Shown here one piece after another: positions 5,231-41,392 of a stretch of 64,000 nucleotides of DNA. Origin of the DNA: Neocallimastix sp. 'constans' (lineage: Eukaryota); NCBI GenBank assembly GCA_050613775.1, contig JBODTK010000011.1:1240001-1304000 (forward strand), read 5' to 3'. The notes beneath the pieces are model-generated. The model searched no databases. It was not told where the DNA came from and was given only the letters and a program-made list of their open reading frames with translations. The position numbers and the translations under genes were made by a program. Numbering within the stretch: position 1 is the first letter of the stretch; the number at the start of each line of letters is the position of its first letter.

Positions 5231-6060
5231 TGTTACGATACAAATAATAAATAAAAAATAAATAAAAAATTAAATAAACTATTAAGATTAATTAATAAAT
5301 AAATAAGAATAAAATATTAAAGTATTAAAATATATAATAAGGAAATTAAATATGTATAAATAACTAAATTATTTAAAATAATGTATTAATTGTATTTATT
5401 TAATATTGTAATAGTAAACAATTAGATATTTTATTATAAATAATTAAAATTATATTTATTATTATTTTATATTTTTATTATAAAATCTTTATTATACTTT
5501 ATTATATTTTTATTATTATCTTATATTAAATATTATATTAAAATTATATTTTATTATATTTTATTATTATAAAATTATTATATTTTTGTTATTATATTTT
5601 TATTATATTTTATATTTTTATTTTTACTCCAATCAAATAAATATTTTAAAGATATAAAAAGAACAAAATAAAACAATACTTTAGTTCTTCCTCTTCTTTC
5701 AACTTTATTTTTTATATTTTTCTTTTAATTTTTCGAGAATGAAATAGTAAATATTTAGAATTAGTATAAATAAATAATTAAATAAATAATTAAATAAAAT
5801 TAAATTGTTCTCTAGTTAAATCGATTAGTTTTGTTTTTGTGTTTTATTATAGTTAAGGATAAAAATAATTTTGGTTAGTTTAAATATTTAAATTTGTTAG
5901 GTAATTTAGTTTTAATTTAGAGATAAATTTTATTAAAATATTTATTTAAGTTATTTATATTAGAATAGTTAAAATAATATTTATTTTGTTAGTGAAAAAT
6001 TAAATTTTTAATTATTAGAATATATTATTTTTTTTTTTAATAATCTTCAATTCTGTACCA
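5231..6060 (+). repeat. 5' LTR of Gypsy-A
   Basis: TG...CA ends. Differs from the 3' LTR by one visible substitution and a T-run length. Confidence 0.95.
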
Positions 6061-6067
6061 TAAATCT

Positions 6068-6085
6068 TGGCGAGCTATGCAGGAC
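6068..6085 (+). promoter_or_regulatory. Primer-binding site, probably tRNA-Arg(ACG) 3' end
   Basis: TGGCGAGCTATGCAGGAC is the complement of ..GTCCTGCATAGCTCG-CCA, which resembles eukaryotic tRNA-Arg(ACG) 3' ends. Confidence 0.7.
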
Positions 6086-7094
6086 ATGAAGATAAAAAAA
6101 TAATATGAAAATAATAATTAAAAATATTAGATAAATAATAAAGTTGTAGAAAAAAAAAAAAATTTGAAATTTAGCCAATAGAATAATTAGAAAATTGAAA
6201 AAAAAAAAAATTAAAATTTAGCCAATAGAATAGTTAGAAAATTGACAAAAAAAAAAAAAAATTTGGATTATAATTAAAGTTGGAAATTTTATTATAAAAT
6301 TATTGGTAATAATAATAAAAAATATATATATATAAAAAATAAAATTTTAGATTATAAATTTAATTTGGAAATTTTATTAATAAAATTATTAGTAATAAAA
6401 AAAAAAAAAAAAAAAAATAAATTAGTAATAAATTATTGAAAATAGTTAGTAGGTAAATAGGGAATTAAATAATTAAATTAAAGTAAAATTTTTGTTAATT
6501 TTGATATTGGAAAGTTTAAATTTTATAATTAAATTTAAAATAAATAGTATATAGTATAAAAAATAAGATTATTAAATACTGATAAAAAAGTATATTTATT
6601 ATTTTCATTCAAAAGAAAAATTAAAACCAAAAATTATAAAGATTTATATACAGTGTGTAAACCGGTTGAAAATTAATTAGTAAAGAATTAGGGTGATTCC
6701 AATTTTTACTAATTAAGGTTTTTAATCGATCTCGTGAGTGCGTGAATACGTCCCAAAGTAATAATTATACTCCCCACGGCACTTTCCGTAGTTTATCAAC
6801 TATCCGAGTGTTGTCAGGGTTTTTGGACAAGATCGAGCACTGGAACAATAATGAACTTATATCACCGAAGGTATAAGGTCCATTTTACAAACCTTTATAA
6901 GAATATAAAAATAAAGTTTTATTATCAATACAGCGAAATAATTAATTCAATAAATAAATAAAATTTTTTTATTCACACAATTTTAATTAATTCAATTTCT
7001 ATTTATTCAATTTCACTTCATTATCAGTTTAATTTAAAAATAATCATCATTCTATATTTAAATTCATAATCAGGAAATTTTCACTTTATATTAT

Positions 7095-7144
<50 letters not shown>

Positions 7145-7311
7145 ATCAATACTTCTAATTAGTCATTCATTAAAAAGTTAATTCAATAAGTTCAGGCAAA
7201 AAATAATAAAAAAAAATATTTATAGGAAATAAAAAATAATCTATAATTAACAAAACAACAAAAACTTATCCACTTATCAATCCATCCATCAATATATTCA
7301 ATCTTATTAAA

Positions 7312-8274
7312 ATGAAAATATTAGAATTAGAAAGTTTACTTCCCCGTCTTAATGAATACGATAGAGATATTGTTTCTTGGTGTGACGAATTCACAAGAAT
7401 CATGTCTTTAGCAAATATCACCAATCCAATGAGTATACACTCCTGGGCAATGGAGTGTGTTGAAGGAAAATTAAGAGGAATAATACAAGACTTATATACA
7501 ATTGAAGATGGTGTTCAAAATTATCCAACAATTCAAGAAATTAAGGACGCAATTGAGAAGGCTTTGGACATAACACCACAAGAAAAATGCAAACGACTTC
7601 AAAAGTTAAGAATTCAGAAAGGAGAAAGCATAAGAAATTTCAATTGGAGATATAAAAAAATGTATAATAATCTCCCAAAGTTTTACCAAACGTTTATTAT
7701 AGTAGAAGATTATGAAGAATCAATTATTTATAGACCCTACGCAAGATCACAAGTAATTACACAAAGATGTTTGGATTTAGAAGATGCATTTGAAGAAGCT
7801 GAACTTGCCGAAAGAGCTGAAGAAAGAAGAAATAACAATAATGAAGTTATAATGACAACATTATATAATAATCATCCATTTTATTACAACAATAATAATT
7901 ACACAGTTAATCCTTACAGACAAGCCAAAACAATAAATTATAATTCCACTTTTAACGGAAGACAAAGTTACATCAAGAAAAATAATTTTAATCAAAGATA
8001 TTACAAAGGAAATGCTGACTTTCAAAATAATTATAATAGAATTCATTTTAATAATGATAAAGTCAATAATTATACAAACAATAATCCAATTACAAGAAAT
8101 GAATCAAACTTTTCTAATAATAATAATATTAATGAAACGAAATCAACTTATAATAATCAAAAAACATGCTATAGATGCGGTCAAAAGGGTCATTATTACA
8201 ATCATTGTCCTTACTCTTTCAAACAACTTGCAGAAATGGAAGAAAAGAATAATAATGAATCTTTAAAATTTTAA
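7312..8274 (+). CDS. gag: Gypsy Gag with CCHC zinc knuckle
   Basis: 320-aa ORF with CYRCGQKGHYYNHC, located after the PBS. Confidence 0.92.
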   Translation: MKILELESLLPRLNEYDRDIVSWCDEFTRIMSLANITNPMSIHSWAMECVEGKLRGIIQDLYTIEDGVQNYPTIQEIKDAIEKALDITPQEKCKRLQKLRIQKGESIRNFNWRYKKMYNNLPKFYQTFIIVEDYEESIIYRPYARSQVITQRCLDLEDAFEEAELAERAEERRNNNNEVIMTTLYNNHPFYYNNNNYTVNPYRQAKTINYNSTFNGRQSYIKKNNFNQRYYKGNADFQNNYNRIHFNNDKVNNYTNNNPITRNESNFSNNNNINETKSTYNNQKTCYRCGQKGHYYNHCPYSFKQLAEMEEKNNNESLKF

Positions 8275-8295
8275 ATGGAAGAAGGAAAACTTCCA
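8262..8295 (+). promoter_or_regulatory. -1 programmed ribosomal frameshift signal (gag-pol)
   Basis: Slippery T TTA AAA in the gag frame, 7-nt spacer, hairpin TGGAAG/CTTCCA. The -1 frame is open into the pol ORF. Confidence 0.8.
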
Positions 8296-11200
8296 ACAAT
8301 CAAACCAAAAATGAAGTTGTTGCTGTTGCCGTAAGAAATAATAAGAAAACAAATAAAGAAAAGCCTTATAGTAAGACTAAAACAAAAACAAATAAAACTA
8401 TAAATACAAAGAATAATCATAATAATGAAGTTGAAAAAATGGAATTAGAAAATGATGAATTACAAACAATTGAAAACAATAATACGAATGCTATTTTTGA
8501 TATCGATAAAAGCAATAGCAATAAAATTCAAACTGAGAATGATATTTCAATATTACCTATTACAACACATTCAACTGAAACTGAAAGACTTAATGAAATT
8601 GACGTTTCAGTTTTAGCACAACAATCTATCAACAAAGCGAAACAAAATGCTAAAAATCAAAAAGAAAAAGAAATCATTGAAGAATCAGAAAATATTATTC
8701 AAGAAACTAATATTAATAAACAAAATAAATTACCAAGTACACAATTAGAAGAAAGAAAAACAAAAAATAATAATACTGATAAAATAGAAAAACACATTAT
8801 GATAATGGATGGACAACCAAAATATGATATAACAAATGATCTCAATAATAAATTTGCAAATATTACATTTCCACAATTATTAGATATTAGTCCAAAATTA
8901 CGAGCGGAATTTATAAAAGCATTGAGGCTGAAAAGCCCTGCAATAAATAAGAAAACTCCTGAAGAAATCATCTTATCAGTAATGGCTAGAGATGATGTAG
9001 CAACAACAGAATGTCGAATTAATAAAGTAAAAGGAATCGCTTTTTTAGATACAGGTGCTAACATAAATTTAGTTACCAAACAATTCTTAAACAAGCTAGG
9101 AAAAATTAAACCAGTGGGATATGTAAAAAATAATATTGTCCAAGTCTTATCAAAAGAAAATGTGTATACAGAGATATATTTATTAAATGTTAATATTGGA
9201 AAGTTAAATTTACACGATATTTTTAGAGTTATTGATAGTAAACATAATTTATTTGATATTTTAATTGGTTATGGAACACTTAAAGATAATAATTTATTTA
9301 TAAACCCAATAAATAATTCTCTATGTCTTATGAAAGAAAATAATTCATGGAAATGTTTAACAAAACTTGGAAAAGAAAATAATGAAGATGTTATTAACGA
9401 TGATGAAGAAGATGAATCAATAAATACAGATGATAAATCTAATTCTGATATTAATAACAATTCTTATTTATACTGCCTTATTAATGAAAATAAAGATGAA
9501 AATAATAATAAATTGTTAGAAAACCATAATGAAGAATTAAATACTATAAATAATAATAATGATAGCAAAGTTAATAATAAAATTGATGAAGATGAAAATA
9601 AAAAGGCGACTTTACTACAAAACATTATAATTGAAATTCCCAATAAAAATAAAAAGAAGGATAGAAAATTATTAAAAGAATTTTCCACTATTTTTGCAAC
9701 AAAAATCGAAGAACTTCAACCGACAAAATTATTACCACACAGAATTCATTTAGTAGATAATGCCAAACCAATAAAACAACGATGTTATAGGCTTTCTAGG
9801 GTTCAAGCTAAAGCACTTAAAGTTGAATTAGAAAAACTTATAAATAACAAGTTAATTGAACCTTCCAATTCTCCCTGGTCCTCTCCAGTTATATTAGTAC
9901 TAAAAAAGAATAAGAAATGGAGATTGTGTGTGGACTTTAGGAAATTAAACACCGTCACAATAAAAGATGCCTATGCATTACCTTTAATCGATGAAATATT
10001 ATTTTCAATTGGAACTGAGGTTAAAGTGTTCACTACAATCGATTTATTTTCTGGTTTTCATCAGATTCCAATGTATAAAGACGATATACCTAAAACAAGT
10101 TTCACCACTATGTATGGCAATTACCAGTTTCGAGTAATGCCTTTTGGATTATGTAATGCTCCCGGAACCTTCCAAAGGGAAATGAATAGGATATTTCTAT
10201 CACTTATTGGAATTTGTATGTTTGTCTACGTTGATGATTTAGTTGTATTTTCTCCTTCTATTGAACAACATATAGAGGATCTCAATAAAGTATTCAACAT
10301 CATTAAAGAAAATAACTTAAAAATTAATTTAGAAAAATGCAACTTCTTCAAAGAAAAAGTCAATTTATTAGGTTATACTTTATCAATTAATGGAATTTCC
10401 CCTATACAAGAAAAAATTCAGGTTATTTTAGAATGGATTCCACCAAGAAATATCACTCAATTACAATCCTTTATTGGTGCAGTCGGCTATTATCGAAAGT
10501 TTATATTCAACTTTGCTAATATTGCTAAACCATTGTTCAAATTATGTAAGAAAGGTGTTAAATTTATATGGGATAAAGAACAAGATGATAGTTTCAATGA
10601 ATTAAAAATTAAGTTAGCTTCTGCACCTATTTTAACTATGCCTAATTTTGATAAACAATTTATTATCCGTACTGACGCTTCTTATGATGGTATTGAAGGA
10701 GTTCTCCTTCAAAAAGATGAAAACAACATTGAAAAACCTATTCATTTTGTAAGTCGCTCTTTAAAGCAGGCGGAGAAGAATTATGCAATAACAGATCTTG
10801 AGGGTACAGCCGCGACTTACTGTGTTACAAAATTTAAGTCTTATATTGCTGGAAATAAGTATGAAACACTTCTTTACACAGACCACAAGCCATTAGTAGG
10901 ATTATTCAAAAACAAAGAAACCAATAATTCTAGGCAAACACGTTGGGTTTTACTTCTTTCGATGTTAAAAGTTAAAGTATTATATGAACCAGGAAAAAAG
11001 AATGTTATAGCAGATGCATTATCCAGACTACATACTGAGCATAATAAAATTATAAGTACCATAACAAGTGAAATAGGTGAAAATAATTCAAATAATTTAC
11101 TTTCTTGTTATAAAGACAAATTCATAGTAATTAATAATGAAGAATATTTTAAAGATGATCGTAAACAAGACGAAAAAGTTGATTTAATATTAAAAGCACA

Positions 11201-12239
11201 TAAAATTGGTCACGAAGGTGTATTTAAAACCTATAATAGACTTAAACGTGACTATCATTAGACTAATATGATTCTTGATGTTAAGTATATTGTAAAAACC
11301 TGTGAAAGATGCCAATTATTTAGACCCCAGTCATTTAACTATCAAACAGAAGACATTGCTACTAAACCAGGATTACCGTTTTCAAGAGTTGGTTTAGATA
11401 TTATAGGCCCACTCCCAACAACAAAGAAAGGAAATAAATATATATTAGTCTTAGTTGATTATCTAACAAAATGGGTTGAAGCAAAACCAAAACAAAATAT
11501 TGAATCCGATGATGTAATTGAATTTTTATCTGATATTTTTGCTCGATTTGGAATACCTGAAGTAATCGTAACTGATAATGGTCCACAATTCTGCTCCGAT
11601 AAAACAAAAGCATTTCTTGATTTATATGGCGTTTTCGTTCAATTTGTTGCTACTTATCATCCTGAGTCAAATGGTGAAGTTGAAAATCGCAATAAAGAAA
11701 TTGGAAAATACTTAAGATTATTATGCAACAAAAACACTTCTATATGGGATGAAATATTACCAAGTGCGTTATGGGCCTTACGTACTTGTAAAAATGAAAC
11801 AACAAAATTTTCAAGTTTTGAATTGTTGTATGGTCGTCGTGACCTTCAACCATTTGAATTAATGTTGAACTTAGACAAAAAGGAAAATTATGAAAGCGAA
11901 GATGAATTTTTAATTAGAAGGTTTACTACTCATTATAAATGGATAAAAGAAGCCATAAGCAATATTTAAACTGCCAATAAAATATGGGAAGATAGAAGAA
12001 AACAAGTTAAAAGACTTAAAGCAGAATATAAACCTGGTGACTTAGTATTAGTTAAATATATAAACAGAAGAAAACTTGATCCTTATTTCTTAGGACCAAT
12101 GAAAATAGTTAAAAATCAATTTAACACAGTAACGCTTTGTGATCCAGTTACTAATGAAATAGCCGAAAGAAATGTGCATTTAAAGAATATCGTTCCGTAT
12201 AGATTATGTGAAATTGAGACTTCAAGGGACGAAGTCTGA
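8262..12239 (+). pseudogene. pol: Gypsy Pol (protease, RT, RNase H, integrase) with two in-frame stops
   Basis: FLDTGA, WRLCVDFR, MPFGLCNAP, YVDD, RTDAS, HHCC and DDE integrase motifs. TAG at 11259-11261 (expected W) and TAA at 11967-11969; the frame continues to TGA at 12239. Confidence 0.93.
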
Positions 12240-12256
12240 TCTTAGGGGTGGCATCA

Positions 12257-13084
12257 TGTTACGATACAAATAATAAATAAAAAATAAATAAAAAATTAAA
12301 TAAACTATTAAGATTAATTAATAAATAAATAAGAATAAAATATTAAAGTATTAAAATATATAATAAGGAAATTAAATATGTATAAATAACTAAATTATTT
12401 AAAATAATGTATTAATTGTATTTATTTAATATTGTAATAGTAAACAATTAGATATTTTATTATAAATAATTAAAATTATATTTATTATTATTTTATATTT
12501 TTATTATAAAATCTTTATTATACTTTATTATATTTTTATTATTATCTTATATTAAATATTATATTAAAATTATATTTTATTATATTTTATTATTATAAAA
12601 TTATTATATTTTTGTTATTATATTTTTATTATATTTTATATTTTTATTTTTACTCCAATCAAATAAATGTTTTAAAGATATAAAAAGAACAAAATAAAAC
12701 AATACTTTAGTTCTTCCTCTTCTTTCAACTTTATTTTTATATTTTTCTTTTAATTTTTCGAGAATGAAATAGTAAATATTTAGAATTAGTATAAATAAAT
12801 AATTAAATAAATAATTAAATAAAATTAAATTGTTCTCTAGTTAAATCGATTAGTTTTGTTTTTGTGTTTTATTATAGTTAAGGATAAAAATAATTTTGGT
12901 TAGTTTAAATATTTAAATTTGTTAGGTAATTTAGTTTTAATTTAGAGATAAATTTTATTAAAATATTTATTTAAGTTATTTATATTAGAATAGTTAAAAT
13001 AATATTTATTTTGTTAGTGAAAAATTAAATTTTTAATTATTAGAATATATTATTTTTTTTTTAATAATCTTCAATTCTGTACCA
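12257..13084 (+). repeat. 3' LTR of Gypsy-A
   Basis: Direct repeat of 5231-6060, preceded by the PPT. Confidence 0.95.
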
Positions 13085-13090
13085 ATTTTG

Positions 13091-14111
13091 TGTAAGAAAT
13101 CATAATTATTCAATAATGAATAATTAATATTTCTTATAATTAATGAAAAATAATTAATAATTTATAATTATTTATAAAATAATAATTATTTTTAAAAAAT
13201 ATTTATTTAAATAATAATTAATATATTCATTGATTTTAACTTATAAATTTATTTAATAGTTATATTTTCATATATTGATTTAAATTTATTTACATATTAT
13301 AATTTATACATTTATATAAATAATATAAAATTTATTTACTTATTATTATTATTCATTTAAATAGAATTTTTACAAAAAATTATGTAAATTTGTATTTAAT
13401 ATTTTACCATAAAAATATTAGTTATTTTAATTAAAATGAATTATGTATTTTATAATGTATTATAAACTATAAATGTATCTAATCTATCATATTATCTAAT
13501 CTTTATTTTTTAAATAAAAAAAAAAAAAAAAAAAAAAAAAATCTTTTTTTTTATTAATTCCTATCCTATCAATATTTAATATTTTATAATTAATTAGAAA
13601 ATCGGTAATTAATGTTTTTCCTAACAAATAGGTTTTCTTTAATTATACGATGATCAATATGATTAGAATATTGATCGAAAAACTATTTAGGTTTTTCTTC
13701 TAATCTTTTCCTAAATAGATTTTTTGTTAAGATTAGAAAATAAATTTATTTAACCGATTAATTTTTTAAAAAATATAAATAGGACTCTTGAATTCTCTTT
13801 GAGAAATCAAGAGTTATTATTTTAAGAAAATATAATAAATAATAACAAATAAAATAAATTTTTTATTTATATATCAAAAAAACTGTTATTAATCATAAAA
13901 GGTTTTTTTTTTTTAAAGAATATTTTCAACTACTATTCTGCCGTTGCTTGGTTATTGTTTGTTATATTTACTTATAATAAACTCTGTATAATTAAGTATA
14001 ATTTTTATTTTTTTAATTTTATTTTCTCAATTTTAATATTATATAAAAATAATATTAAAATTGTAGATAATAGTTATATTAATTAATTTTAGTTTTAGTA
14101 TAGCTATTACA
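13091..14111 (+). mobile_element. Solo LTR, Gypsy-B (TGTAAG) family
   Basis: TGTAAG...TTACA with 5-bp TSD TTTTG on both sides; core homologous to the LTR at 15969-16841. Confidence 0.88.
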
Positions 14112-14769: not shown

Positions 14770-16841
14770 TGTAAGAATCTATAATTATTTGCTAACAAAT
14801 AATTATATTTTCTTAGTTAAGTTATTATAATTATAACTTTATGGCGTACTTCACTTTCAAAGGCGTATTATTATTCCTTCCAGTCTCAGGGCTAGACTTT
14901 TAAAGTCTTTCCATGATGCACCCACTAGTGGCCATCAAGGGGTAGATAGGACCTTTGAAAAACTCAGAAGGAACTACTGGTGGCCTAATATGAAAAAAGA
15001 TATTTCAAATTATGTGGCTTCTTGTGATGTTTGTTGTAGAAATAAAATCCGTCGTCATAAACCTTATGGTAAACTAATACCACTTCCTACTCCTACAAAA
15101 CCCTGGGAAGTTATTGGCGTCGATTTTATTGTTTCATTGCCTTCTTCACAAGATTGCACTTGTATCATGGTTGTTTCTGATCATTTAACCAAAATGATTC
15201 ATTTAGTACCCTGCTCCGATGTTCCCTCTGCCGATTTAACTGCTAAGCTCTTACTTTTCCAAGTCTTTAAGTATCATGGTTTTCCTAAAGTGATTGTGTC
15301 TGATCATGGTTCCCAATTCTCTTCTCAATTTTGGACTTCGTTGTGCGATGCTATTCGTGCTAAACCAAGACTTGCTACTGCTCACCACCAACAATCAAAT
15401 GGTCAGGTTGAACGGGCTAATGCTGTAATAGAACAATATCTTCGCTGCTATTGTTCTTCTGCTCAAAACGAATGGTGTTTCTACCTCCCTTTATGTGAAA
15501 TGTCCTACAACAACTCCATTCACAAATCAATAGCTCAAACTCCTTTTCATGCTAACTATGGATTTGACCCAAATTGTGTTATTGATTCACCACCGATTCT
15601 GCTAAAAGATAGTGCTTCTGTTCTTACTAGGGATTGGTCTTCACATTTCAATGCCCTTCGTCAACATTTAGTTAAAGCCAAAGAAGATTTTAAGAAATAT
15701 GCTGACAATAAAAAATCTGTAGGACCTGACTTTAAGGTAAATGATTTGGTAATGCTTAGAAGATACTACTTTACGAATGAACCCTCTAGAAAATTATCCA
15801 CTCAATATATTGGACCTTTTAAAATCATCGAGAAAAGGGAAAGAATGAATTACCGTTTGGAACTTCCAGAGAACTTACATCTCCATCCGGTATTTCATAT
15901 CTCACAATTGGAACCATATACTAAAAGAAATGAAGACTTAATGGAAACATCATAATTAAACAGAGCAATGTAAGAATCTATAATTATTTGCTAACAAATA
16001 ATTATATTTTCTTAGTTAAGTTATTATAATTATAACTTTATTTAATTACATATAATATTTATTAAATTTATTTAATTTAATTTTAAATATTCATTAATTT
16101 AACAAAATTTATTTAATTAATTTTAAATAATATATTTACAATATGTTAAATTCTCTACTGTAACTAATGTATTTTGTATTGTATTTTATTCTGTATTTTA
16201 TAATGCATTCTGTATTATATAATGTATTCTGTATTTTATTAACTATTTAATTTTATATTTTTAATATAAGGATAAATTATATGATCGAAATATCTTTTAT
16301 TATTTTATTCTTTTATTTTCGATCATTAGATTGGAAAATCGGTTAATTAAGATTTTTTCCAATTACTTTTTAGAAGTAATCGGTTTTACTTAATTAATGC
16401 GATGATCGATATGGATAGAATATCGATCAAAAACTTATCTAGGTTTTTCTATCTAATCTTTTCCTAGATAAGAGATTTGTTAAGATTAGAAAACCCTTTC
16501 TTATTTAACCTTATTTTCATAAAAAAATATAAATAAGGCTCTTGAGTTCTCTTTGAGAAATCAAGAGTTATTATTATAAAAAACATAGTTATAATAGTAA
16601 CAATTTTATATTTTTAACTTTAATAAATTAATAAAATATTTTATTCAAAAAACATATTTTAAAATCAAATTTATACAAACAATTCTTCTCTTACTTCTCG
16701 TGTTATTATTATAATTAATTTTATAATAAACTCTAAAGGTAAAAAAAATTTATCTTATTTTATTTTCTCAACTTAATGAATTAGTCGTTAAGTTGTAGTC
16801 AATAATTCTATTTTGAGTTAGTTATTAATAGAATTATTACA
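14770..16841 (+). mobile_element. Internally deleted Ty3/Gypsy element (Gypsy-B)
   Basis: First ~72 bp of the LTR (14770-14841) fused directly to integrase coding sequence; complete 3' LTR 15969-16841; flanks TTGTG/TTGTA. Confidence 0.9.
14840..15955 (+). pseudogene. Gypsy (Tf2/chromovirus-like) integrase fragment without chromodomain
   Basis: Frame open upstream of the called ATG: HDAPTSGHQG...YWWPNM...CDVC, then VDF...SDHGSQF...NGQVER, GPF motif, HPVFHISQLEPY, then stop. Confidence 0.9.
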
Positions 16842-16842
16842 T

Positions 16843-17525
16843 TGTATAATAATCTATTTATAATATACTAACTATAACTAGATTATTAATATTTTAAGAT
16901 ATAAAAATTTATACTTAACTTTATATAGAGTTTATTATAAACACTAAATATTGATATAAACAAAAAGACTTTATTTCTTTTAATTTATTATATAGCATTA
17001 TATAATAATAACTCTAATTTCTTTAATCAAAGAAATTTGAGTTCTTTTATACTTTTTTATTTATAATTATTTTAATAGATGAAATTATTAAATAGATGTA
17101 ATTATTAAATAAATAAAATAGATAAGATAAAGTTAACAAATCAAATAAAGGTATCTAATCTTAACAAATTGATATTCAGGAAAAGATTAGTAGAAAAACC
17201 TGAATAACTTCGATTAATATTCTAATATATTAATCATCGTATTAATTAATAAAAACCCAATCATAATAATATTGGGGAAAAAATTAATTAACCGATTACT
17301 AAAATCTTATAAATTATCAACTAATTGAAATAATAAAATATAAATAATATTTTTAAGTAATTAATATATTATAACAAATTTGTTTACATTATTTTTCAAT
17401 ATATATTAATTTGGATAAATTAATATATTTTTTACATGTTAATAAATATTGAAATATAAATGAAATATAAATTAATTAAATAAGAAGATAGATTATTTTA
17501 TAAGAAATAAATCTATATTCTTACA
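16843..17525 (-). mobile_element. Diverged solo LTR, Gypsy-B family
   Basis: Minus strand starts TGTAAGAATA and carries the same structured core (17150-17297). Left boundary approximate; no clear TSD. Confidence 0.75.
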
Positions 17526-34391: not shown

Positions 34392-35884
34392 ATTATTTAC
34401 ATATGACGTCACATGTATTTATTTATATTATGTTTATATATATGTTTACATCATATATATTAACTACTATTTTTAATTATTCAAATTAATTATAAAAATT
34501 AAATTTATTTAATTATATTAAATATTTTAAACATATCGATATTGTTATTATTTTAATATTTTATTAATAATCATTTTACTATATTATTATTATCTTATAA
34601 TTAAATACTATTATTATGTAACTTACAAAGTATAAAAGAAAGATCTAAAAATCTATCTTTTATGTTCTTTGTAAGGTTATTGTGTTACAATTATATACTA
34701 ATAATTCAACTTTTATTAAATAAATAAATATTTTATAAATCTTCAAATAAATTATTGTTTAAATTATTCATTAAATATTAAGTGTTTAAATAAATTAATT
34801 ATTTAACTTATTTTATTTTAATTATTATTTTATTATTAATTAATTATTTTTGTATTATTAATATATAATTCAACATATTAACCTAGTAACGTTAGTAATT
34901 ATAAAGCTATTTTATATCTTAATTTTAACATACAACTTAATAATAACTAAATAATAATTATTATTAAATTGAGAAAGCAAAAAAGATAAATATACTTATA
35001 TTCTATAAGAAAGAGTTTATTATAACTAATTATAATAAACTAATAACACAGAATTGTCAAAGAGAAAAGATTATTTTATTTTATTTTTAAATTTGTTTTA
35101 TTAAAACTTACTTTATTAAAATAGAAATATAAAATATTTATTAATGTTATTACTATATTATAATTGTTATAATAATAACTCCTGATTTCTCAAAGAGAAT
35201 TCAAGAGCCTTATTTATACTTTTTTGAAAAATAAGGGGTTAAATTAAAAAATGTTTTCTAATCTTAACAAATCTCTTATCTAGGAAAAGATTAGAGAGAA
35301 AAACCTAGATAAGACTTTTTGATCGATATTCTATCCATATCGATCATCGTATCAATTAGGTAAAACCAATTACTTTTGAGAAGTAATTGGAAAAAACTCT
35401 AATTAACCGATTCGTTAATGTAATTAATCGAAAATAAAAGAATAAAATAATAAAAGATATTTCGATCATAAAATTATATATTTACAAATAAGGAAAATAA
35501 CATAATAATGATATTAATAAACAAAATACAGAATACATTATTAAAATACATATTAGAATACATAATATATTTGTTTACAATTTAATTAAATAAATAAACT
35601 AAAACTAATAAATTTAATAATTAAATGTATAATTAAATAAACTATAATTATTTATAAATGTATAAATAATAATTAATTAAATAAATTTTGTTGTATTATA
35701 TTAATGAATATCTAATATGGAGTTAAATAAATTATTAATAATATTTAAATGAATAAATATTATATAATTAAATAAAGTTATAATTATAACTTTAACTAAG
35801 AAAATATAATTATTTTATTTAAAAATAATTATAGATTCTTACATCTGGGAGAAAATTAAATAAATGCATATATTAATAAATAAC

Positions 35885-41310: not shown

Positions 41311-41392
41311 CGTCACCTGCAGGACTCGAACCTGCGCTCCCAAAGGGAAATGGCTTAGCAGGCCACCGCGTTAACCACTCCGCCAAAGTGAC
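41311..41392 (-). tRNA. tRNA-Ser(GCT)
   Basis: GTCACTT-TGGCGGAGTGGTTAACGC-GGTGGC CT GCT AA GCCAT-long variable arm-GCAGGTTCGAGTCCTGC-AGGTGACG; 82 nt, no intron, downstream T-runs. Confidence 0.97.

Follow-up and report, generated by a model that had tools for sequence, protein, structure and literature searches.

A hairpin with a long pyrimidine loop, SL-C, lies in what is probably U3 of a Ty3/Gypsy LTR in the window (the whole 64-kb stretch of DNA that was analysed). It is a genuine covarying hairpin, the third of three adjacent stem-loops, and its loop, its closing G-C pairs and a purine block downstream show the highest conservation within the LTR core. Our favored, still tentative, reading is that SL-C folds in sense-strand RNA of the 3' UTR, where its loop is predicted to pair with the purine block.

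The LTR family and its host element

The LTR copy that holds the element lies beside an integrase ORF, and three further copies of the element occur in the window:

14837..15955, + strand: integrase ORF fragment with Integrase_H2C2, rve and SH3_Tf2-1 domains, stopping 14 nt before LTR c16k
15969..16841, + strand: LTR copy c16k, with TGT...ACA ends, directly 3' of the Ty3/Gypsy integrase ORF, delimited with a four-copy alignment
13683..13740, + strand: element copy in LTR c13k
17153..17208, - strand: element copy in LTR c17k
35254..35313, - strand: element copy in LTR c35k

The integrase ORF assigns the element to Ty3/Gypsy and marks c16k as its 3' LTR, and the description in the earlier note of four diverged Gypsy LTR copies was right on both counts. 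The integrase shares only 28% identity with that of the neighboring Gypsy element at 7240-11969. The LTRs are ~870 bp long; c17k abuts c16k tail to tail at 16843, and DNA contigs contain LTR-to-LTR joints of c16k that lead from 16841/16845 to 15967/15971. A fifth copy, L130, comes from a metagenome contig and was recovered by a pattern that fixes the loop sequence. The comparison between copies covers these five, which are related by descent.

Three further features place the element within the LTR:

16528..16535, + strand: TATAAATA, presumed LTR promoter TATA box, from sequence
16539..16567, + strand: SL-D, hairpin CUCUUGA...UCAAGAG right after the TATA box, from RNAalifold and pair counts (helix 6)
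16725..16730, + strand: AATAAA within the invariant TTATAATAAACTCT, presumed poly(A) signal from sequence and alignment, 232 nt past the element

The TATA box is retained in four of the five copies; c17k has TATAAAAG further downstream instead. SL-D falls in the bin of highest word depth of the LTR in four DNA runs. Since the conserved block precedes the TATA box by 38-94 nt and AATAAA by 232 nt, it probably belongs to U3 and would therefore be transcribed from the 3' LTR only, as 3' UTR. If transcription began upstream of the hairpins, they would be present in the 5' UTR as well.

Metatranscriptome contigs from two studies span 16303-16486 (records 4 and 7 of X15 and record 11 of X16), although these are strandless and may carry DNA, and the raw RNA-seq run X24 contributed only two reads on the region. 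Poly(A) loose ends were not seen in the RNA contigs over the LTR, which show cover only. One contig extends from U3 across R and U5 and a further 29 bases, and it may represent an assembly merge through R.

A recurrent and strongly conserved motif

The pattern GGTTTTTCT-N(0-4)-CTAATCTTTTCC has exactly four matches in the window (13690-13711 and 16442-16464 on the + strand, 17179-17200 and 35283-35305 on the - strand) and none in 100 shuffles, and a covariance model of the element likewise matches these four copies only. The earlier note had described this motif with a spacer of one or two nucleotides, enclosed by a covarying stem and followed by an invariant AAGATTAGA, and each of these observations holds in all four copies. 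The arms of the closing stem are CUUAUCUAGG/CCUAGAUAAG in c16k and c35k, CUAUUUAGG/CCUAAAUAG in c13k and UAUUCAGG/CCUGAAUA in c17k, and TTGTTAAGATTAGA occurs downstream of the loop motif in all four with zero mismatches. L130 adds a fourth stem variant, CUCUUUAGG/CCUAAAGAG; it retains the loop, which its search pattern fixed, and also AAGAUUAGAAAA, which was free to vary, while GAUUUU replaces UUUGUU. Within the 250-nt LTR core, the three longest stretches that never vary (13, 11 and 10 nt) all fall inside the element, the second-longest being TTAAGATTAGA in the purine block (invariant in five of five copies), and the TATA box is less conserved than the SL-C loop and its downstream partner.

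In metagenomes the loop pattern hit 12 loci: L130 alone is a true LTR copy, and the other 11 are unrelated coding-like DNA. The one viral match to the loop pattern (L119) is unrelated. An anchor pattern placed outside the element returned more than 118 unrelated viral contigs from public collections, none with the loop motif, and a stricter anchor pattern found nothing among metagenome contigs. The sole prokaryotic match to a pattern running from the TATA box to SL-D, bacterial locus L132, is also unrelated and belongs to a genome that lacks the LTR core. Rfam gave no match at E <= 10 for 16250-16850 and sub-threshold, chance-level matches only for L130; across the whole window, only a tRNA (41311-41392) reaches the gathering score. 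Neither ARAGORN nor Rfam confirmed a tRNA-like sequence next to the L130 LTR.

Three adjacent covarying stem-loops

The three hairpins lie side by side in c16k:

16338..16403, + strand: SL-A, ENE-like stem-loop, from RNAalifold, pair counts and single folds
16404..16428, + strand: SL-B, 9-bp hairpin GAUCGAUAU-GGAUAGA-AUAUCGAUC, from RNAalifold and pair counts
16434..16472, + strand: SL-C, closing stem S1 (16434-16443 with 16463-16472) and a 19-nt pyrimidine loop (16444-16462), from covariation

Taken over all stems, 17 of the 63 tested pairs are altered on both sides, and 93% of cells are paired, compared with 29-45% when the partners are slid; none of 500 shuffles attains the observed values. 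The closing stem of SL-C, which the earlier note had proposed to covary, indeed does so, with double-sided changes in five of ten pairs and 94% of cells paired. SL-B is paired in 100% of cells, with double changes in three of nine pairs and a single G.U, in L130. SL-A consists of a lower stem (16338-16351/16389-16403), a U6 tract (16353-16358) opposite a U4 tract (16384-16387) and an upper stem that starts with C16359-C16360 paired to G16382-G16383; double changes affect three pairs in helix 1 and two in helix 2.

Folding of single sequences recovers SL-A and SL-B in all five copies and S1 in three; in c13k and L130, nested alternative folds outscore those based on S1, and MFE z-scores of the 60-nt element are just -1.2 to -1.6. 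A kissing pair between the SL-B and SL-C loops was rejected, as it fits c13k, c16k and partly c17k but fails in c35k and L130.

Helices 1-4 contain nine sense-strand G.U cells against two A.C cells, the form in which an antisense-strand G.U would appear here, and these wobbles favor folding of the sense-strand RNA. Among the variants listed, which are per-position calls from DNA contigs that carry no linkage between positions, three preserve sense-strand pairing: 16398 T>C turns a G.U into G-C, 16396 A>G turns a U-A into U.G, and 16456 A>G would turn an A-U into G.U. A further common variant, 16390 T>C, would disrupt a sense-strand pair in SL-A.

Proposed pairing of the loop with the purine block

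The proposed pseudoknot stem S2 has these two strands:

16453..16460, + strand: S2a, loop segment CUAAUCUU, proposed 5' strand, invariant in five of five copies (fixed by the search pattern in L130)
16482..16493, + strand: purine block AAGAUUAGAAAA, of which 16482-16489 (S2b) is the proposed 3' strand

The segment AAGAUUAG is complementary to the loop CUAAUCUU, and the complementarity between the loop and downstream sequence, already pointed out in the earlier note, exceeds chance: within the 40 nt that follow the loop, the longest perfect Watson-Crick match to it reaches 8-10 bp, with shuffle P values of about 0.005-0.024 per copy for copies that are not independent. A crude energy estimate places the pseudoknot about 5 kcal/mol below S1 alone. 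An S2 pseudoknot is possible. All eight S2 pairs are invariant in the five copies, and covariation thus neither supports nor refutes this stem. The only common polymorphism in S2 among the variants listed, 16456 A>G, makes up 7-17% of word depth in four DNA runs and would give a G.U pair.

S2 is significantly less variable than the stems that only pair (Fisher P 0.029 and 0.010). Pairing alone is therefore insufficient to account for its constraint, which points to recognition of the sequence itself; a DNA-binding or RNA-binding protein would explain the conservation of S2 equally well. In the mechanism that we propose, the invariant pyrimidine loop would pair with the invariant purine block that lies 8-10 nt downstream, the two forming an H-type pseudoknot or else an alternative hairpin, and the hairpin domain would act on the fate of the RNA 3' end through stability or poly(A) protection. 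SL-A might serve as a classical ENE-type U-rich clamp on poly(A), with SL-C and the purine block as a sequence-specific tertiary or protein-recognition module next to it.

Comparison with known triple-helical elements

Triple-helix ENEs, some of them embedded in LTRs, occur in plant and fungal transposon RNAs, as set out in section 3.4 of PMC7583470 and in parts of PMC13541005 and PMC12501189. The suggestion in the earlier note that the fold may not be a described LTR element is weakened by these published transposon ENEs. The present elements share with those described in these sources a structured, U-tract-rich domain, here probably in the 3' region of a retrotransposon RNA.

SL-A, 30 nt upstream of the conserved block, fits the ENE architecture much better than SL-C does, and we consider it a candidate ENE that would clamp poly(A); the earlier note had overlooked it. 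It has the layout of stem, U-rich internal loop and stem-loop, with U5-6 opposite U4-5 and two C-G pairs beside the U tract on the upper side in all five copies. The lower side differs in having a single G-C pair, often past a spacer of 1-2 nt, in four of five copies, the rest of the lower stem being A-U. G-C pairs right beside the U-rich loop are essential in Evade, according to PMC12501189; a biphasic melt is also reported for Evade. Its location upstream of the TATA box and AATAAA would put it in U3 and hence in the 3' UTR. A scan of the window with an ENE-like descriptor hit this LTR family only (two matches compared with 0.35 in shuffles).

In SL-C, too, G-C pairs lie directly next to U tracts, here U5 and U4. 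However, SL-C lacks the upper stem of an ENE: U5CU and UCU4 lie beside the closing G-C within one 18-19-nt loop, and the intervening 5-6 nt are too short. Its pyrimidine tracts are broken by C, and its proposed purine partner is encoded and internal rather than being the poly(A) tail.

Two C-interrupted pyrimidine tracts facing an encoded, G-containing purine tract would resemble the blunt-ended ENE+A triple helix of MALAT1 and MEN-beta as presented in section 3.4 of PMC7583470. The RNA order (tract 1, tract 2, stem arm, linker, purine tract) is the same, whereas the upper stem-loop between the tracts is absent here, the purine tract does not sit at the 3' end of the RNA, and a tRNA-like processing signal is missing. 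At most 4-6 triples would be possible, in contrast to the 10 of the MALAT1 triple helix. Telomerase pseudoknots likewise share the strand order, and their U-rich loop 1 has a counterpart that could run parallel to the purine strand of stem 2, with U.A-U triples near the stem junction. Here, however, stem 2 lacks covariation, loop 3 is not A-rich, three U residues are spare and a 2-nt L2 lies at the junction; the setting is a retrotransposon 3' UTR and not the telomerase ribonucleoprotein, and there is no homology.

Alternative explanations

The earlier note had proposed a full triplex in which S1 and S2 form an H-type pseudoknot and U16447-U16448-C16449-U16450 lie in the S2 major groove, parallel to A16482-A16483-G16484-A16485, in the triples U.A-U, U.A-U, C+.G-C and U.A-U. 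We regard this model, which is drawn from base order, as improbable. The strand order (S1a, U-rich L1, S2a, L2, S1b, L3, S2b) is that of an H-type pseudoknot with L1 parallel to the purine strand, and L1 of 8-9 nt and L3 of 8-10 nt, for an S2 of 8 bp and an S1 of 8-11 bp, are sterically plausible by general pseudoknot geometry. The rough energy estimate favors the pseudoknot, and GGUUUUUCU, UCUU and AAGA are invariant in all five copies, as would be expected because triples need three coordinated changes. Against this, we estimate that chance could plausibly place a UUCU in a U-rich loop of 9 nt; the register leaves three 5' U residues unused and requires a protonated C; and the triplex leaves unexplained why the four S2 pairs beyond it (CUAA/UUAG) are just as invariant. 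In c13k and L130, moreover, the complementarity reaches 10 bp and would consume U7 of the proposed Hoogsteen strand. L3 is U/G-rich, unlike the A-rich minor-groove strand in loop 3 of telomerase pseudoknots, and the purine block, being internal and 232 nt before AATAAA, cannot cap the 3' end as in MALAT1. The MFE folds of c13k and L130, which choose a hairpin between the loop and the purine block over S1, would suit a different reading, with the two as alternative or intermolecular partners, in a switch between S1 and a long loop-purine hairpin (12 bp with a 3-5 nt bulge) or in a contact between two genomic RNAs for dimerization or packaging. The reverse complement of AAGAUUAGAAAA also equals the loop save for an insertion of 3-4 nt. 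We nonetheless consider such a role quite improbable: S1 covaries and so has to form at some point, the AAAA extension is missing from c17k, and known dimer and packaging signals of retroelements sit in the 5' leader.

The block could also act as DNA, which we judge unlikely while giving it serious weight. TTCTAATCTT and AAGATTAGAA, separated by 30 bp and accompanied by T-tracts, make up an inverted repeat 38-94 bp upstream of the TATA box and could be host factor sites or promoter-architecture elements in an LTR enhancer/promoter. This would suit the U3 location just upstream of a conserved TATA box and a sequence invariance stricter than in the pairing-only stems. It would also suit the extra direct copies of TATCTAATCT at 13477-13486 and 13494-13503 in c13k, where GATTAGAA recurs in the SL-B loop, a pattern typical of factor sites that come in repeats. 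The antisense strand also gets a weak score from the same covariance model, because the element is quasi-palindromic. But DNA sites leave unexplained both the compensatory changes in S1, SL-A and SL-B, where sequence differs and pairing is kept, and the excess of G.U over A.C on the sense strand, and AGATTAG is not enriched across the window (15 observed, 10.6 expected). H-DNA was rejected, the tracts not being homopyrimidine mirror repeats, and an upstream poly(A) enhancer was considered unlikely at this distance from AATAAA. We find it very improbable that the block has no function, with inverted repeats left behind by template switching in reverse transcription or replication and invariance due to recent common descent of the copies. 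In favor of this reading, only five related copies were compared, and in this highly repeated family most copies that are at least 80% alike have the 16k-type stem, with no S1 variant of at least 5% among the variants listed. Yet flanks and stems differ widely (mean column identity 72%) around three invariant blocks of 10-13 nt, and pairing is maintained across four different S1 stems. Copy-based repair, furthermore, predicts perfect pairs, in contrast to the G.U conserved in four of five copies at 16342/16398.

Implications

Should the conserved sequences prove to be promoter sites, they would represent ordinary LTR enhancer biology and would show that AT-rich inverted repeats can mimic RNA motifs. 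A true pseudoknot triplex, on the other hand, would extend the range of architectures in which RNA triple helices are known. In the boldest reading, SL-C would join the purine block in a compact triple-helical pseudoknot in cis within the 3' UTR, a MALAT1/telomerase-like core that has no upper stem and an encoded internal purine strand, and would work with SL-A as a two-part RNA-protection module of the retrotransposon; we think this rather far-fetched, but if true it would represent an architecture new to triple-helix stability elements. If the hairpins function at the RNA level, as in our favored reading, a very AT-rich, feces-associated eukaryote, perhaps an anaerobic gut fungus, would join the hosts of transposons with structured protection elements in the 3' UTR, and the textbook-like ENE candidate SL-A together with the unusual SL-C hairpin would form a natural pair for study.

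The LTR and its surroundings

The window is eukaryotic DNA, very AT-rich (GC 8-30% across it), and forms a nest of transposons. Its DNA is found in two labelled organisms and many animal-faeces metagenomes, and an anaerobic gut fungus is a possible source. The window holds four copies of one LTR family (c13k, c16k, c17k and c35k), and the element studied here, 16434-16493, lies in c16k. The main features are as follows.

~5231-13033 (by repeats): Gypsy element with identical LTRs, ORFs 7240-11969
14837-15955: Ty3/Gypsy integrase ORF (Integrase_H2C2, rve, SH3_Tf2-1), ending 14 nt before the LTR start
15969-16841, +: LTR c16k (TGT...ACA); DNA contigs with LTR-to-LTR joints confirm its ends
Also in the window: two Copia elements, non-LTR reverse transcriptases and one tRNA-Ser

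The integrase beside c16k shares only 28% identity with that of the neighbouring Gypsy, which is a very recent insertion since its LTR segments (5231-6008 and 12257-13033, 7026 nt apart) are 100% identical. The first 73 nt of the c16k LTR (15969-16041) are duplicated at 100% identity at 14770-14842, directly before the integrase ORF fragment, and this copy therefore looks internally deleted (LTR start, 3′ part of pol, 3′ LTR). At 16841-16843, c16k (+) and c17k (-) meet tail to tail, separated by one base (…ATTACA T TGTATAA…); it is unusual for two LTR ends to lie head-on like this. The family is present in very many copies: in four DNA runs its summed word depths are 10^4-10^5.

The element lies 38-94 nt upstream of TATAAATA (16528-35), the presumed TATA box, and AATAAA (16725-30, within the invariant TTATAATAAACTCT) follows 232 nt downstream. 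Because it precedes both, ordinary LTR anatomy would place it in U3, where it would be transcribed only at the 3′ end of the transcript, as 3′ UTR. Cover by metatranscriptome contigs extends over 16303-16486 in two studies and over parts of R-U5 in three, although such libraries can hold DNA and the contigs carry neither strand nor RNA ends. In one raw RNA-seq run, 2 of ~10 million reads match.

Conservation of the element

The earlier note had described a hairpin block shared by the four LTRs, and direct checking of the sequences confirmed this observation: all four sites read as described, and the hairpin is real. The pattern GGTTTTTCT-N(0-4)-CTAATCTTTTCC has exactly four matches in the 64-kb window, whereas none of 100 shuffles matches.

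13690-13711, +: site in c13k
16442-16464, +: site in c16k
17179-17200, -: site in c17k
35283-35305, -: site in c35k

TTGTTAAGATTAGA lies downstream of all four with zero mismatches, and a covariance model of the element (filters off, 64-kb window) recovered these sites only (80-92 bits; next best 20 bits). Scans of public collections added one true copy, L130, on a metagenome contig, the remaining matches all being unrelated. The LTR termini of L130 resemble those of c16k, and it carries a new stem variant, CUCUUUAGG/CCUAAAGAG; the search pattern dictated its loop, whereas AAGAUUAGAAAA was free to vary and yet was kept. Its linker reads GAUUUU instead of UUUGUU, so the UUUGUUAAGAUUAGA previously taken as invariant shrinks to UUAAGAUUAGA, the part retained in 5/5 copies. 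The longest three invariant runs of the LTR core all fall inside the element (CTAATCTTTTCCT, 13 nt; TTAAGATTAGA, 11 nt; AGGTTTTTCT, 10 nt). A candidate tRNA at L130 20-95 (-), ~10 nt from the LTR start, was confirmed by neither ARAGORN nor Rfam.

A series of covarying stems

RNAalifold, applied to a five-copy alignment of 250 nt of LTR core, predicted four stem-loops.

16338-16403, +: SL-A
16404-16428, +: SL-B, a 9-bp hairpin with a purine-rich loop, 100% of cells paired
16434-16472, +: SL-C, closed by stem S1 of the earlier note
From 16539, after the TATA box: SL-D

With the proposed pseudoknot stem (S2) included in the pair counts, 93% of cells across the whole structure are paired, versus 29-45% with partners slid, and 17 pairs have changed on both sides, a number reached by 0/500 shuffles (shuffle mean 6.3). 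Such double changes affect 5/10 pairs of S1, 3/9 of SL-B, and 3/14 and 2/4 in the SL-A stems. Counted in this alignment, they establish the covarying closing stem S1 as real, and S1 is one stem of a series that had gone unnoted. In helices 1-4 the sense strand has 9 G.U cells to 2 A.C cells, and a G.U at 16342/16398 is retained in 4/5 copies. Three variants common in the population (16398 T>C, 16396 A>G and 16456 A>G) preserve sense-strand pairing, whereas a fourth, 16390 T>C, does not. These strand signals, from few independent events, tilt the balance towards a sense-strand RNA fold.

Immediately before 16539, contigs part ways in 4/4 DNA runs and one RNA run, which suggests that the SL-D/R block is common to several LTR subfamilies with differing U3 sequences. 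In c13k, the SL-B loop contains GATTAGA, the same word as the downstream purine block, and the upstream U3 (13477-13503) has two extra direct copies of the loop word TATCTAATCT, 17 nt apart, followed by an A27 run at 13515-13541.

The proposed pseudoknot and triple helix

For the proposed S2, CUAAUCUU (16453-60) is complementary to AAGAUUAG (16482-89). The match is perfect over 8 bp in c17k; c16k and c35k extend it to 9 bp, and c13k and L130 to 10 bp, with a shuffle P of 0.005-0.024 per copy (the copies not being independent). Covariation is neutral on this pairing: all 8 pairs are invariant in 5/5 copies (the L130 loop by search pattern) and hence uninformative. S2 is significantly less variable than S1 (one-sided Fisher P 0.029) and shows significantly less variation of any kind than helices 1-4 (one-sided Fisher P 0.010); taken with the longest invariant runs, this means that sequence itself is constrained, beyond pairing. 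On a rough estimate, which sums the stacks and charges 9.6 kcal/mol for the knot, the pseudoknot comes out ~5 kcal/mol lower than S1 by itself; nested alternative folds win in c13k and L130, and the 60-nt folds are unremarkable against shuffles (z -1.2 to -1.6). A pseudoknot in the element is plausible.

The full model of the earlier note, an H-type pseudoknot with UUCU lying parallel to AAGA in a triple helix, appears improbable to us. The geometry is admissible because the strand order is H-type and loop 1 is oriented parallel to the purine strand, and the predicted loops (L1 8-9 nt, L2 2 nt, L3 8-10 nt) look sterically possible by the usual geometry of pseudoknots. In the chosen register three 5′ U residues go unused and a protonated C is required, and in two copies longer Watson-Crick pairing competes with that register. 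A triple helix, in which any change must be coordinated across three bases, would account for the invariant UUCU/UCUU/AAGA but not for the CUAA/UUAG half, which is equally invariant. The triple helix may be regarded as a drawing compatible with the sequence only.

An ENE-like neighbour

ENEs, triple-helix RNA stability elements, are outlined in PMC7583470 as stem-loops whose U-rich internal loop clamps poly(A). In Evade, G-C pairs flanking the U tracts are reported as essential (PMC12501189). SL-A fits the stem-loop layout, as published, better than the flagged block does.

16338-16403, +: SL-A in c16k
~13600-13655, +: SL-A in c13k
~17235-17295, -: SL-A in c17k
~35340-35410, -: SL-A in c35k
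348-412 of L130: SL-A in the metagenome copy

All five have a long lower stem, U5-6 opposite U4-5 in an internal loop, and an upper stem that abuts the U tracts with two C-G pairs; stem sequences differ among copies, and both stems covary. Window matches to a simple ENE-layout descriptor were limited to this LTR family (2 vs 0.35 in shuffles). In Rfam, no family matched the LTR at any point. The general idea of an LTR-borne triple-helix element is already known: ENEs have been described in transposon RNAs of plants and fungi, in some cases inside LTRs (PMC7583470; PMC13541005).

What the element may be

The invariant blocks could instead be factor sites in an LTR enhancer, acting as DNA. Such a role would account for how strictly the sequence is kept invariant, for its place immediately before the TATA box, and for the additional TATCTAATCT copies (13477-13503) and GATTAGAA in the c13k SL-B loop, but leaves unexplained the compensatory stems that lie in the block and on either side of it. 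The loop-to-purine-block complementarity would also suit a conformational switch or an intermolecular contact. Neutral origin is unlikely, because the invariant blocks sit inside flanks of 72% mean identity and a G.U is conserved. The hairpin probably belongs to the 3′ UTR as an RNA feature, and the better candidate for a triple-helix element in this LTR is SL-A, 30 nt upstream.
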